From positions 48,783 through 112,782 of the forward strand of contig JABWCG010000003.1 in NCBI GenBank assembly GCA_013359225.1: a DNA stretch of 64,000 nt, written 5' to 3'. This document shows, in pieces, positions 1 to 64,000 of this stretch. The translations under genes were made by a program, and so were the position numbers. Numbering within the stretch: position 1 is the first letter of the stretch; every line of letters begins with the position of its first letter. This DNA comes from Candidatus Buchananbacteria bacterium (GTDB lineage: Bacteria; Patescibacteriota; Patescibacteriia; Buchananbacterales; UBA6539). The notes beneath the pieces were generated by a model. It saw only the letters and a program-made list of their open reading frames with translations, searched no databases and had not been told where the DNA came from.

Positions 1-98
1 GCATAATCAAATATGGTGATACAGTAGTTGACGGCAGCGTCAAACGAGCAATCGCCGATTTAAAACAATCAATGGTACAAATCTATGCAAAAAAATAA
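1..98 (+). CDS. atpH: ATP synthase F1 delta subunit (OSCP), C-terminal fragment; 5' end lies outside the window
   Basis: Frame 3 reads ...[31 protein letters not shown] and ends at 96-98. It sits immediately upstream of atpA in the canonical atpH-atpA-atpG-atpD-atpC order, and the DGS-containing C-terminus is typical of delta/OSCP. Confidence 0.5.
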
Positions 99-1596
99 CA
101 GCGATTACATAATTGACAGTTTGCGCCGACAACTGACGGATTTCCAACCTGAGGTCAAAACCGAACGAGTCGGTACCGTGGTCGAAATCGGTGACGGCGT
201 AGCAAAGATGACCGGGCTTTCACAAGTAATGGCCATGGAGATGCTTGAATTCCCTCACGGGATTATGGGCGTCACCCTCAACCTAGAAGAGGATTTGGTT
301 GGTGCCGTGATATTTGGTGAATTTAATGAAATTAAAGAAGGGGATACTGTCAAAGGCACCGGTACCGTTTTGTCAGTCCCAGTTGGCGAACAGTTAATCG
401 GCCGAGTTGTTGATTCGCTTGGCGTACCTCGCGACGGCAAAGGACCGATTAACACCACAAAGCGCTACCCTATTGAAAAAATTGCGCCACGCGTTATTGA
501 ACGACAGCCGGTAAACACTCCGCTGCAAACCGGCATTAAAGCCATCGACTCAATGATCCCAATTGGCCGCGGCCAACGTGAATTGATTATTGGTGACCGC
601 CAAACCGGTAAAACGGCTGTTGCCATTGATACTATCATCAACCAAAAAGGTAAAGACGTAATTTGTATCTACGTCGCTATTTCTCAAAAACAATCAAATG
701 TCGCCCGCGTTATCGCGAAACTTGAAGAACACGGCGCTATGGACTACACCACCATCGTTGTAGCCTCTGCTTCTGATCCGGCTTCAATGGCGTTTATCGC
801 ACCATACAGCGGCTGCGCGATCGGCGAATACTTCACCGATAACGGCAAAGATGTTTTGGTAATCTATGACGACTTAACCAAACAAGCTGCAGCCTATCGA
901 CAGGTATCACTCCTACTTCGCCGCCCACCCGGACGCGAGGCTTTTCCAGGAGACATTTTCTATCTACATTCCCGACTACTTGAACGCGCCTGCCGACTCA
1001 GCGATGAAAAAGGCGGCGGTTCTCTAACCGCTTTGCCAATCATTGAAACGCAAGCCGGAGATATTTCAGCCTACATCCCAACCAACGTCATTTCTATTAC
1101 TGACGGCCAAATCTTTTTAGAGTCTGATCTGTTCTATCAAGGTATCAGACCGGCTGTCAACGTTGGCTTATCCGTCTCACGTGTCGGTTCGGCCGCGCAA
1201 ACCAAGGCAATGAAAAAAGTTGCCGGCAAGTTGCGCTTAAGCCTCGCTCAGTATCGTGACTTGGCCGCTTTCGCGCAATTTGGTTCCGATCTTGATAAAG
1301 CCACCCAAGAACAAATCAACCGAGGAGCACGCATCACTGAAATCTTGAAACAGTACCAGTACGAGCCAATGTCTAACGAACACCAGGTTGCTATTTTGTA
1401 TGCTGCAATCAACGGCTACGTTGACGACATTACTGTTGAAAAGATGCGGGAATTTGAGGCTCATTTGCATCGCTACCTCGACATTCATGGCAAAGATGTT
1501 TTAAGCGCCGTTGCCAAAACGGGCGAACTCAATGAAGCAAACGAAGCCAAATTGAAATCATTAATTCAAGAGAGTAAAAAAGTATTTACTGTTTAA
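85..1596 (+). CDS. atpA: ATP synthase F1 alpha subunit
   Basis: 503 aa. Walker A GDRQTGKT, plus a conserved alpha-subunit stretch ([41 protein letters not shown]). Confidence 0.95.
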
Positions 1597-1599
1597 CCA

Positions 1600-2517
1600 A
1601 TGGCACTGCTAACCAGAAAAATTAAACGTCAGATTCAATCCGTTAAAAACACTCAAAAGATTACCAAGGCAATGGAGTTGGTATCGGGTGCGAAGATGCG
1701 CAAAGCTGTTAATGCGGTATTAACCTCCCGGCCATATTCCAACTTAGCCTGGCAAACTGTTGCCACGCTTTCCAACACCGTTGATCGTGAACTGCATGCT
1801 TTGTTGTTTGATCGGCAGACTGCAAAAAAAATTGGCGTGGTTTTAATCAGCGCTAACCGCGGTCTCTGTGGCGTTTTTAACCAGCAAATTGCCCGTGAAG
1901 CACTTCGGTTTGTTCAACAGGAGCAGCAGACACCCGACGTTGAAAAAATTGAATTTATCACACTCGGTCATAAAGGCGCCCAAATCATTGCCAAATCAGG
2001 CAACGTCATTGCATCAGATTTCACTAAGCCCGACGTGGTCACCGATATTAGTGAGATTTCTTCCGTTGCCAAAATGATCGTCCAACAGTACATCGACGGT
2101 GACTACGACAAAGTTGTACTAGTCTATACCGATTTTATTAATTCCCTCAAACAACGCCCGGAAATAAAACAATTATTACCAATTAAACAAAACGACAATT
2201 CTGGTCTAGGTAAAGTTGGTCAAGACGAGGAGCCGGCGTCCGCCAAAAAAGATGTCACTGAATATTTGTTTGAACCGTCAGCCGATTTTGTCTTGTCTCA
2301 TTTTCTGCCACGATTGATTGAGGTTCAAATCTACCAAGCAATTTTAGAATCAAACGCGTCAGAGCATAGTGCTCGAATGGTTGCTATGAAAAATGCTTCG
2401 GACGCGGCCAGCGATTTAATTAACGAATTAACATTAAGTTTTAACAAAGCTCGCCAAGCGGGAATCACTCAGGAAATCAGTGAAATCTCGGTTAGTAAGG
2501 CGGCATTAGAAGGATAA
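1600..2517 (+). CDS. atpG: ATP synthase F1 gamma subunit
   Basis: 305 aa. N-terminus MALLTRKIKRQIQSVKNTQKITKAMELVSGAKMRKA and C-terminal ...ITQEISEI are typical of gamma. Positioned between atpA and atpD. Confidence 0.9.
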   Translation: MALLTRKIKRQIQSVKNTQKITKAMELVSGAKMRKAVNAVLTSRPYSNLAWQTVATLSNTVDRELHALLFDRQTAKKIGVVLISANRGLCGVFNQQIAREALRFVQQEQQTPDVEKIEFITLGHKGAQIIAKSGNVIASDFTKPDVVTDISEISSVAKMIVQQYIDGDYDKVVLVYTDFINSLKQRPEIKQLLPIKQNDNSGLGKVGQDEEPASAKKDVTEYLFEPSADFVLSHFLPRLIEVQIYQAILESNASEHSARMVAMKNASDAASDLINELTLSFNKARQAGITQEISEISVSKAALEG

Positions 2518-2523
2518 ACGAAT

Positions 2524-3891
2524 ATGTCTCAAGGAACAATCAAACAAGTAATCGGACCGGTGGTTGACGTGGCGTTTGACGACACCTTGCCGCAGATCTA
2601 TCACGCCCTGGAAGTTAGCACCGGCAGTGACACTTTGGTGTTAGAGGTTCAGCAACACTTGACCGGCAACGTTGCGCGCACTGTGGCCCTAGGTACTACC
2701 GATGGTCTGCGTCGCGGTATGGCCGTAGTTAATACCGGCGCACCGATCATGATCCCGGTCGGCGACAATACTCTAGGCCGCATGTTCGACGTCTTAGGCA
2801 AGCCACTTGATGGTAAAGCAGCCACAACTGGCAAACAGTACCCGATTCACCGACCAGCCCCAGCCCTGACCGATCAATCAAACTCCGTTGAAATTTTTGA
2901 AACTGGTATTAAAGTTATCGATTTAATTTGTCCATTTGCCAAAGGTGGTAAAGTCGGACTTTTCGGCGGTGCCGGCGTCGGTAAAACCGTTGTTATTCAA
3001 GAATTGATCCATAACATCGCCACCAAACACGGCGGCTACTCAGTTTTTGGCGGCGTCGGTGAACGAACCCGCGAAGGTAACGACTTATACTTAGACATGA
3101 AAAATAGCGGCGTGCTTGAAAATACCGCTCTCGTTTTTGGTCAGATGAACGAACCACCAGGATCTCGCTTGCGCGTTGGTTTAACTGCTTTAACGATGGC
3201 GGAATATTTCCGCGACGAAAAAGGTAAAGATGTATTGTTATTTATCGACAATATTTTCCGATTTGCCCAAGCCGGTTCTGAAGTGTCGGCCCTGCTTGGA
3301 CGCATCCCTTCGGCCGTCGGCTACCAGCCAACCCTAGCAAGCGAAATGGGAGAATTGCAAGAACGAATTACTTCAACCAAAAAAGGTTCTGTCACCTCCG
3401 TTCAGGCAGTCTATGTCCCGGCCGACGACTTAACCGACCCGGCGCCAGCGACCACCTTTACCCACCTAGACTCAACTGTCGTGTTATCCCGCGGTTTATC
3501 GGAATTGGGAATCTACCCCGCCGTTGATCCGCTCGATTCAACTTCCACCATCCTAGATCCGCTCATTGTCGGCCAAGAACACTATGATACCGCCCGTCAG
3601 GTACAAAAAGTACTCCAGCGCTATAAAGAATTGCAGGATATTATTGCCATTTTAGGAATGGAAGAATTATCCGACGCAGACAAACAAACCGTTAACCGCG
3701 CGCGACGCATTCAGCGCTTCTTATCACAGCCATTCTCAGTCGCCGAAGGTTTTACCGGCAGCCCTGGAAAATATGTACCATTAGCCGACACCATCCGAAG
3801 CTTCAAAGCAATATTAAACGGCGACTACGACAACGTCCCAGAACAAAACTTCTACATGAAAGGTAGCATTGACGACGTCGAACGCTCATAA
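2524..3891 (+). CDS. atpD: ATP synthase F1 beta subunit
   Basis: 455 aa. P-loop GGAGVGKTV and conserved beta-subunit blocks ([25 protein letters not shown]). Confidence 0.95.
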
Positions 3892-63905: not shown

Positions 63906-63928
63906 CTGTTCATTATTGAAATTTAACC

Positions 63929-63960
63929 AAGCTCACGTATCGCTACGATGAGCTTTTTTC
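63929..63960 (+). terminator. Rho-independent terminator after the amidohydrolase gene
   Basis: aagctcacgtatcgctacgatgagctttttt. Confidence 0.6.
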
Positions 63961-63970
63961 TTTAAACAAA

Positions 63971-63998
63971 AAACCAGCGGTTGAGCGCTGATTTTTTG
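63971..63998 (+). terminator. Second tandem terminator
   Basis: aaaaaaccagcggttgagcgctgattttttgat. Confidence 0.6.
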
Positions 63999-64000
63999 AT

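Follow-up and report, generated by a model that had tools for sequence, protein, structure and literature searches.

Why should genes of accessory character, distinctly richer in GC than their surroundings, stand at intervals between the housekeeping operons of a single bacterial chromosome? The question is raised by a 64,000-nucleotide stretch of Candidatus Buchananbacteria bacterium (Patescibacteriota; assembly GCA_013359225.1, contig JABWCG010000003.1, positions 48,783 to 112,782, forward strand), here called the window, in which seven discrete GC-rich blocks interrupt an AT-richer backbone. The initial annotation, made from the sequence without database searches, read this mosaic as repeated horizontal acquisition from higher-GC donors and named chimeric assembly as the alternative. 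The mosaic is real, if weaker than first described, and the explanation we favor, with moderate confidence, is that the seven cassettes and their 11 accessory genes have foreign ancestry in GC-richer lineages, entered at differing ages, and have ameliorated only in part. The 11 genes are listed here, with GC content and GC content at third codon positions (GC3) where these are cited individually.

4851-5147, minus strand: 98-residue small membrane protein; GC 0.549, GC3 0.667; AAGGAG Shine-Dalgarno sequence, GTG start
7858-8580, minus strand: 240-residue protein with an HEGGH (HExxH) motif and C-terminal transmembrane helices, last gene of the MoxR block; GC 0.497, GC3 0.556
8619-9542, minus strand: von Willebrand factor A (vWA) protein, CoxE-like, partner of MoxR (VWA_CoxE 1.5e-8, also VWA_2 and VWA); GC 0.515
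9718-10959, minus strand: AAA+ MoxR ATPase, bpMoxR type (PF20030 3.4e-35), P-loop GDPGTAKT; GC 0.534, GC3 0.626
10974-11699, minus strand: 241-residue secreted or membrane protein, first gene of the MoxR block; GC 0.504, GC3 0.583
17902-18804, minus strand: 300-residue Trp/Cys-rich orphan; GC 0.511; own terminator at 17884-17861
23916-24938, minus strand: 340-residue protein of predicted GT-B fold, monocistronic; promoter-like site 25035-25007, terminator 23886-23857; GC 0.545, GC3 0.616
53795-54214, minus strand: 139-residue GC-rich open reading frame (ORF) between two terminators, downstream of a SAM-I-like riboswitch
59292-61190, minus strand: 632-residue surface protein with TSP3 repeats, the strongest outlier; GC 0.572, GC3 0.717; terminator 59263-59240
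61520-62479, plus strand: 319-residue flavoenzyme of the DHO_dh family, a distant PyrD relative (PF01180 9.7e-13); GC 0.540, GC3 0.588
62469-63905, plus strand: cyclic amidohydrolase, dihydroorotase-like; GC 0.543, GC3 0.572; terminator 63975-63990

Extent and Significance of the GC Mosaic

GC content for the whole window is 0.442. The 11 flagged coding sequences (CDSs) occupy 10.6 kb, or 16.5% of the window, with GC of 0.497-0.572 and GC3 of 0.487-0.717, while the 56 backbone CDSs average 0.420 in GC (standard deviation 0.035, range 0.33-0.50) and 0.42 in GC3. The genes for ATP synthase alpha (atpA, 0.47) and beta (atpD, 0.50) reach the lower edge of the rich class, atpD being the backbone maximum at 0.499. 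Per-gene values bear out the coordinates first given for the GC-rich segments and their coincidence with whole genes; the step is genuine, but the true contrast is 50-57% against about 42%, rather than the 55-60% against 35-45% first estimated by eye. The excess is limited to CDSs, with spacers beside the rich genes at 0.373 and all other spacers at 0.376.

Block significance was assessed by maximal-scoring segments, for which a null model of independent, identically distributed bases gives a 95% level of 14.2 and a maximum of 18.4. The segments found were as follows.

59276-61119: score 82.6
61495-63836: score 70.0
9721-11670: score 40.4
23882-24927: score 33.1
7987-9561: score 24.2
17899-18764: score 14.0, borderline
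4829-5024: score 13.6, borderline
53792-54207: score 12.2, borderline

Significant steps are thus found for four of the seven blocks, which lie far above chance with scores of 24.2 to 82.6 (the MoxR island is recovered as two segments, 7987-9561 and 9721-11670), but the three short blocks are borderline. Recursive binary segmentation was also tried and dropped; it finds large blocks only, since single splits miss short islands that lie inside a segment of 47 kb. An unsupervised two-component mixture on GC and GC3 picks precisely the 11 flagged genes, with modest support for two classes by the Bayesian information criterion (-147.3 vs -140.1 for GC3, none for GC alone).

The shift reaches synonymous positions. 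Rich genes have GC z-scores of 2.2-4.3, and per-gene z-scores for GC, GC3, GC at fourfold degenerate sites (GC4), and GC3 of twofold codons are mostly 2-6, with GC4 z of 2.6-4.8 in seven genes and twofold GC3 z of up to 6.0. Codon positions 1 and 2 are shifted as well (z 1.2-2.8), and two rich genes, 17902-18804 and the vWA gene, are ordinary at fourfold sites (z 0.4-0.5). In codon usage the preference for NNG and NNC codons is raised over the backbone, with CTG, TCG, GCG, ACG, CCG, GTG, AAG, and AAC favored. The proteins of the rich genes contain less Lys, Ile, and Asn than those of the backbone, and more Arg, Pro, Trp, and His (rich vs backbone: K 3.8 vs 7.7%, I 5.3 vs 9.0%, R 5.7 vs 4.1%, W 2.0 vs 0.9%). 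In codon and amino-acid usage alike, these genes look like those of a higher-GC genome. In dinucleotide relative abundance the large blocks lie 0.11-0.165 away from the backbone, vs 0.05-0.07 (standard deviation about 0.01) for size-matched backbone pieces. Normalized tetranucleotide z-score correlation, a weak discriminator at these block lengths, is reduced only slightly for the rich blocks, and the signal expected from this measure is missing altogether for the TSP3 and GT-B genes.

Junctions and Assembly Integrity

All 14 block edges fall in spacers, which make up 9% of the window (coding fraction 0.909), and the flanking genes are intact. The edge spacers are AT-rich and host-like, with promoters and terminators in place. 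The terminator hairpins said to bracket several of the blocks are indeed found, for 4851-5147, 17902-18804, 23916-24938, 53795-54214, 59292-61190, and the 61520-63905 pair. A Logan contig from run SRR25608322 (L170), 100% identical to window positions 22805-23969, spans msrA, a HIT gene, and the 3' end of the GT-B gene, so crossing the junction between the HIT and GT-B genes; another contig, L001 from run SRR10914236, equals window positions 54306-55224. Three assemblies of related species made independently, L082, L166, and L163 (introduced below), contain homologous junctions. On the strength of the intergenic edges, the L170 junction, and the recurring junctions, we reject the chimeric-assembly alternative, which is contradicted outright for three junction types, and regard the window as chromosomal sequence that was assembled correctly.

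A Long-Lived Variable Locus Upstream of infB

The TSP3 gene and the DHO_dh/amidohydrolase pair adjoin a conserved anchor, whose position allows the locus to be compared among relatives.

58429-59218, minus strand: tRNA-Cys (58429-58503) and a 204-residue backbone gene (58604-59218), directly upstream of infB

Homologs of the 204-residue gene with 48-76% identity occur in four related genomes, L002, L082, L163, and L166. IF-2 in the related species that share the DHO_dh/amidohydrolase pair or the TSP3 gene is only 62% identical to that of the window. In L166 (ENA, 3.8 kb), the order is the 204-residue homolog (76%), DHO_dh (65%), and amidohydrolase (69%), the pair having GC of 0.53-0.55. This contig aligns to the window at 58427-59218 (71% nucleotide identity) and 61537-63914 (66%), and because it aligns on either side, the block 59219-61536 containing the TSP3 gene is a clean indel relative to it. 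L082, an 80-kb JGI contig, encodes HU, YmdB, RNase Y, ClpP, DHH, RbfA, IF-2, a tRNA, a 201-residue protein, DHO_dh, the amidohydrolase (61%), and Maf, in that order; its backbone has GC of about 0.38 and GC3 of about 0.30, while its pair has GC of 0.50/0.53 and GC3 of 0.57/0.56. L163 (Logan, 19.6 kb) carries a TSP3 ortholog (42-44%), a different Amidohydro_1 gene, the 204-residue homolog, the tRNA, and infB, with TSP3 at GC 0.50 and GC3 0.55 vs 0.38 and 0.29 for its backbone. L002, the nearest species representative, has in the same position another amidohydrolase-like ORF, with a DWHVHLR motif and GC of 0.518.

Cargo differs from genome to genome: TSP3 plus DHO_dh plus amidohydrolase in the window, the pair only in L166 and L082 (where TSP3 is absent from the locus), TSP3 with a different Amidohydro_1 gene in L163, and a class-II-like amidohydrolase in L002. 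The region upstream of the 204-residue gene, tRNA-Cys, and infB is a long-lived variable locus with GC-rich cargo in all genomes examined. The mosaic characterizes the clade and is no peculiarity of this assembly. Orthologs keep a GC3 offset over their hosts of +0.15 to +0.30: TSP3 stands at +0.30 in the window vs +0.26 in L163, and the pair at +0.16 in the window vs +0.26 in L082.

The L082 contig has two further features of its own. A GIY-YIG nuclease gene absent from the window lies between infB and the tRNA (7860-8099), and a 16S rRNA gene with four tRNAs (14775-16871) accounts for its other GC-rich stretch (15.4-16.9 kb).

The amidohydrolase has 99 homologs, three of them at 61-69% identity, two of those placed in this clade by synteny. 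Below these, identity falls to 54% or less, among proteins assigned by name to Candidatus Hinthialibacter, to Omnitrophota, and to Verrucomicrobiota, Pelagicoccus/Puniceicoccaceae included. In a neighbor-joining tree the four copies of this clade are monophyletic, beside clades of Hinthialibacter/Omnitrophota and of Verrucomicrobiota. The Hinthialibacter gene, at GC 0.536, fits its 0.50 contig and has no adjacent DHO_dh gene. Polarized fourfold-site changes along the window and L166 lineages, with L082 as outgroup, number 22 from GC to AT vs 9 from AT to GC, a modest excess by which the gene is still losing GC and which fits slow amelioration; L082 was chosen as compositionally balanced, a Hinthialibacter outgroup being biased by its high GC4 and unused for inference.

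A search of 5.8 billion proteins with the TSP3 protein returned a single match, the syntenic L163 copy. Taxonomy of the database matches, proposed as a check on origin, leads outside the phylum for the amidohydrolase once the copies of its own clade are passed, to Hinthialibacter, Omnitrophota, and Verrucomicrobiota, but for TSP3 only to a related member of the Candidate Phyla Radiation (CPR).

Functional labels first given to the blocks stand for the ATPase/vWA/HExxH island, for TSP3/PD40, and for the GT-B fold. The supposed pyrD/pyrC pair, by contrast, proves to consist of distant family members: the DHO_dh-like protein scores 46.4 bits vs an NCBIfam equivalog cut-off of 269 for PyrD, and the amidohydrolase 40.1 vs 279 for PyrC, so both are assigned, on sequence similarity, to their superfamilies only. 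Translation of the amidohydrolase probably starts at 62499 (the database copy has 468 residues).

Besides its TSP3 repeats, of bacterial type, the TSP3 protein has a signal peptide and propeller repeats resembling PD40/TolB, and it ends in a motif followed by a transmembrane segment and an RRK tail. This C-terminus (59292-59450, minus strand), VPATSALGLLLLVVVLVSFGTFVLRRK, with its motif, transmembrane helix, and basic tail, resembles exosortase-type sorting signals, although its matches to XrtH-midcut (E 4e-4) and IPTL-CTERM (E 0.012) both fall below cut-off. Among the genes of the window, none for an exosortase was seen.

The MoxR-vWA Island

The MoxR island at 7858-11699 has a promoter-like site (11/12) at 11820-11792, ahead of its first gene, and its last gene, for the HExxH protein, has no family match in Pfam, NCBIfam, or PADLOC. 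PADLOC likewise matched none of the GC-rich proteins. The MoxR subfamily is rare; its full-length members fall into about 12 representative clusters, at 37-47% identity. Two of its loci retain the MoxR-vWA pair, and nothing else of the island, with vWA homologs 32-33% identical to ours. L168, a locus in a metagenome-assembled genome (MAG) of Moranbacteria, has uniform GC of 0.53, pheS and pheT included, and its pair, at 0.53/0.56, adjoins a Ter cluster and an rve transposase. In L169, which has the closest MoxR (45%), the pair is at 0.355/0.379 within a 0.35 contig. Because the pair matches host GC in both of these genomes but not here, where it stands at 0.52-0.53 in a 0.42 host, the preferred reading is that it was acquired from a donor of higher GC, probably within the CPR.

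The GT-B Gene and the Short Blocks

An AlphaFold2 (AF2) model of the 23916-24938 product (pLDDT 88, pTM 0.84) matches MshA, BshA, and UDP-GlcNAc 2-epimerases by Foldseek (E 2e-12, probability 1.0, TM-score 0.64-0.69), which places the protein, as modeled, in the GT-B fold glycosyltransferase/epimerase superfamily with two Rossmann-like domains. Only five homologs were found, none above 50% identity; one, P0102, sits in a polysaccharide-synthesis cluster of GC 0.535. Sequence searches of PDB were empty for this protein and for that of 17902-18804. The latter gene has a GC4 of only 0.507 (z 0.4), its excess lying mostly at codon positions 1 and 2, and its match to ATP-grasp (MptN) is weak (E 0.0084), with a single-sequence AF2 model that is unusable (pLDDT 30).

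The small membrane protein gene at 4851-5147 has a promoter-like site at 5250-5222 and a terminator at 4787-4772, and no match in Pfam, PADLOC, or Rfam. An ORF at 4701-5105 on the plus strand overlaps it in antisense; the Shine-Dalgarno sequence, promoter, and terminator all belong to the minus-strand ORF, and the plus-strand ORF is probably a by-product of GC-rich sequence. A structured RNA was considered for 4829-5121 and dropped, since Rfam was empty at permissive thresholds and the Shine-Dalgarno sequence, promoter, and terminator are present; the same reading of 53792-54207, where permissive Rfam thresholds gave only the neighboring SAM-I-like aptamer, was dropped on the same signs of a small gene, with lesser certainty.

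The remaining block, the ORF at 53795-54214, likely starts at an ATG at 54171, after GAGGAG. Relatives have nothing similar to it in the corresponding spacer. In its position, downstream of the SAM-I-like riboswitch, the relatives encode a zinc-ribbon ORF of 54-62 residues (CPxC-x13-16-CPxC) that is missing from the window: at 2936-3124 (minus) in L082, at 16079-16243 (plus) in L163, and in two copies at about 15088-15500 (plus) in L002. Upstream of the block lies an element that is not GC-rich.

54300-54413, minus strand: putative SAM-I (S-box) riboswitch aptamer, diverged, between clpP and rny; 32.7 bits, E 3.8e-5

In the same spacer, SAM-I (RF00162) scores 39.7 bits in L082 (3202-3331, minus) and 35.9 in L163 (15879-15979, plus), against 32.7 in the window and a gathering score of 44.4. 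Core motifs UUAUCAAGAG, GCCCGA, CAGCAAC, GUGCUAA, and AGAUAA are kept, the four-way junction shows seven compensated pairs in the alignment of the three sequences, and terminator hairpins follow the aptamer at 54290-54262 and 54260-54219. No SAM-I-like element was found in the loci L006, L008, L009, and L010, from Komeilibacteria and other Patescibacteria.

Origin of the GC-Rich Genes

What we observe directly are the steps in composition, junctions that are intact, synteny shared with relatives, and the distributions of the gene families; donors, route of entry, and timing are inferred. Seven promoter-to-terminator cassettes of 50-57% GC would have become lodged between housekeeping operons of about 42% (atp, gyrA, infB-rbfA, clpP, rny, ftsH, tsaDE, and pilB/pilT). 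Other CPR bacteria are the likely source of the MoxR-vWA pair and probably of the GT-B gene, and the amidohydrolase likely derives from the family centered on Hinthialibacter, Omnitrophota, and Verrucomicrobiota. Entry would have occurred without mobile-element machinery, plausibly by DNA uptake and recombination; pilB and pilT are both in the window. The MoxR-vWA pair would be anomalous only in this genome, while the DHO_dh/amidohydrolase pair and the TSP3 gene would be old residents of the shared variable locus, slowly losing GC under incomplete amelioration. The proposal of repeated horizontal acquisition accordingly survives in part: codon usage, the amidohydrolase family, and the GC of MoxR-vWA support foreign origin, but the pair and the TSP3 gene are old and shared with relatives rather than fresh imports. 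Phylogeny and patchy distribution speak for transfer in the case of the amidohydrolase and MoxR-vWA, and not in that of TSP3.

Several observations weigh against foreign ancestry. In composition, the three short blocks are not individually above chance, and internal fluctuations in atpD (14.6) and gyrA (12.3) match them; and tetranucleotide usage is host-like in TSP3 (r 0.56 vs 0.50±0.09) and likewise in the GT-B gene. No integrase or transposase domain occurs among the 69 ORFs scanned, the blocks have no flanking direct repeats, only shared terminator motifs and chance matches, and tRNA-Cys has no duplicated end. TSP3 has no homolog outside a related CPR genome among the 5.8 billion proteins, so that no donor can be named for it, and no syntenic relative was found for the 5' blocks (4851, the MoxR island, 17902), a metagenome scan with CopA giving relatives of 41-48% identity and no synteny. 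Fourfold-site identity between the window and L082 or L163 is 0.27-0.34, where chance is 0.24-0.25, in backbone and rich genes alike, and backbone GC4 differs by about 0.25 between the window and these relatives. Simple relaxation from a single transfer would need ancestral third positions that were almost wholly G or C. For the pair this is a borderline demand, and for TSP3 it is implausible.

These last points lend themselves to another explanation, unlikely in our view, in which the GC excess is a stationary, gene-specific trait of long-resident, lineage-specific genes, kept up by synonymous selection or by GC-biased gene conversion in surface and accessory genes that recombine often, and foreign origin is unneeded. 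Syntenic orthologs do keep a similar GC3 offset despite differing host composition, with fourfold sites near saturation; the flanking spacers are fully host-like; and TSP3, host-like in its tetranucleotides, is confined to the clade. A stationary trait, however, sits poorly with the L169 MoxR-vWA pair, which is not GC-rich, with an amidohydrolase that is off equilibrium at 22:9, with the high-GC imprint on amino-acid usage, and with an amidohydrolase family centered outside the CPR. Lassalle and colleagues in 2015 reportedly put the effects of GC-biased gene conversion in bacteria at a few percent, not 15-30 points, which we also count against it. It is quite unlikely that the TSP3 gene, and perhaps the DHO_dh/amidohydrolase pair, are held 15-30 GC3 points above the genome by such a gene-specific force, be it GC-biased gene conversion at a hot spot upstream of infB or synonymous selection; were it so, foreign-looking composition would be a stable heritable trait of native genes and no trace of transfer.

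The locus upstream of the 204-residue gene, tRNA-Cys, and infB might instead be a recombination hot spot, its cargo repeatedly replaced from a GC-richer pool so that present copies are fairly recent and their common position is owed to the hot spot, not to vertical inheritance. By our count the five genomes show five different cargo sets at this one place, the DHO_dh protein of the window is only 38% identical to that of L082 while the neighboring amidohydrolase is 61% identical, and the TSP3 block is a clean indel vs L166. We nevertheless judge this improbable: the amidohydrolase copies are monophyletic, with divergences that parallel those of the neighboring backbone gene (69/61% vs 76/56%), the sole TSP3 homolog anywhere is syntenic, and no closer donor-side sequences were found. 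As accounts of the retained GC offset itself, we tentatively rank one old transfer with slow decay first, recurrent replacement second, and a gene-specific GC-favoring force third.

That there is no separate class, the flagged genes being an upper tail of normal variation driven by amino-acid content, is very improbable. It draws on the weak support for two classes, on short blocks that score like the atpD and gyrA fluctuations, and on the ordinary fourfold sites of 17902-18804 and the vWA gene, but it fails to accommodate the synonymous shift in most of the genes, segment scores of 33-83 set against the null, or the outlier status of the same genes in relatives. Mis-joined or contaminating pieces from other organisms, an idea prompted by a metagenome-assembled contig with sharp composition steps, can be practically dismissed, given 14 of 14 non-coding edges (random-join chance about 0.09^14), an independent run's contig crossing one junction at 100% identity, homologous junctions in three independent assemblies, and relatives that carry the same mosaic.

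Three implications follow, the main one for quality control. The GC steps being biological, this MAG contig is reliable across them, and such regions should not be trimmed from CPR bins on grounds of composition alone. If foreign ancestry with partial amelioration is correct, the genes add one well-documented case of ultra-small Patescibacteria gaining metabolic, surface, and conflict-system genes, largely from other CPR and co-occurring phyla. A signal that survives near-saturated synonymous divergence bears also on the rate of amelioration in small, slowly recombining genomes, and on the dating of transfers by composition.

Other Features of the Window

A Pfam scan of the 69 ORFs identified in the backbone atpA/G/D/C, cyclophilin, Lit, a CsoR/CopA/Fur/ZIP metal cluster, extracytoplasmic function (ECF) sigma factors, MsrA, TsaD/TsaE, PilB, FtsH, S1, GyrA, NusB, RNase III, PilT, HU, YmdB, RNase Y, ClpP, DHH phosphoesterase, RbfA, and IF-2. 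The window contains three tRNAs, including tRNA-Cys (minus strand), and beyond tRNAs no Rfam family reaches its gathering score in it. The nearest GTDB species representative is another Buchananbacteria MAG, with IF-2 69% identical; further relatives are other Patescibacteria.

GC skew is negative throughout (cumulative -13.2, no switch), the plus strand being C-rich. Of 56 backbone genes, 38 are on the plus strand, atp and gyrA among them, with coding-strand skew of -0.08 vs +0.16 for genes on the minus strand; either most genes in the window are on the lagging strand, or the skew convention fails in this organism. Three intrinsic terminators, at 6403-6437, 30635-30669, and 47897-47931, are near-identical, AAAAAATCGCC-N5-GGCGATTTTTT, 80-100% over 35 nucleotides, and stand after unrelated genes. 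The metal-homeostasis cluster at 12114-17771 (CsoR, an HMA-DsbD_2-cupredoxin fusion, CopA P-type ATPase, a Fur-family regulator, and a ZIP transporter) has host-like GC, and the best relatives of its CopA among 241 million metagenome records are 41-48% identical; this cluster may also be a transfer, hidden from composition tests. A 64-nucleotide direct repeat (49157-49220 and 49361-49424, 83% identical, 204 nucleotides apart) lies in the N-terminal part of an S11 D-Ala-D-Ala carboxypeptidase gene and is probably an internal domain duplication.

Comparison with Known Systems

MoxR-vWA-centered ternary conflict systems have been described by Kaur, Burroughs, Iyer & Aravind 2020 (PMC7159879). The pair described here resembles them in its bpMoxR-type AAA+ protein, with the GxxxTAK[ST] variant of the P-loop, and in its adjacent vWA gene. 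It differs in having no linked beta-propeller, VMAP, iSTAND, or FtsH-type third component; its neighbors in the island are the HExxH membrane protein and the 241-residue secreted or membrane protein, which lacks propeller domains, and the only propeller protein in the window (59292-61190) is 48 kb away.

Classical integrative islands share with the blocks their atypical composition, their accessory cargo, and, at one variable locus, proximity to a tRNA gene, tRNA-Cys. Unlike such islands, the blocks carry neither integrase nor transposase and show no att-like direct repeats and no duplication of a tRNA end; they are single genes or one operon (0.3-3.8 kb), and the cargo by tRNA-Cys lies 5' of it, past an intervening conserved gene.

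In Patescibacteria, genomic islands and individually transferred genes make up as much as 13% of genome length; most transfers stay inside the phylum, they are not recent, and the donors include Omnitrophota (PMC12455944). The present case agrees in phylum, in metabolic and surface cargo, and, on our reading, in within-phylum and older transfers and in Omnitrophota as a likely source. The two studies differ in approach, that one applying MetaCHIP and island predictors to one aquifer data set, ours relying on composition and on synteny in independent assemblies, without a donor genome.

Foreign DNA is more often AT-richer than its host, and here the atypical genes are GC-richer, with the anomaly confined to CDSs. 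In the model attributed to Lawrence and Ochman, compositionally atypical acquired genes reportedly ameliorate toward the host, and our observations agree with it in that whole genes deviate in GC, GC3, codons, and dinucleotides, in that these are accessory and patchy, and in the net GC-to-AT drift of the one polarizable gene. They depart from it in that the signal outlasts the simple model, persisting in syntenic orthologs with near-saturated synonymous sites. The feature is real, biologically meaningful, and of an ordinary kind, in which atypical composition does not mean recent transfer.

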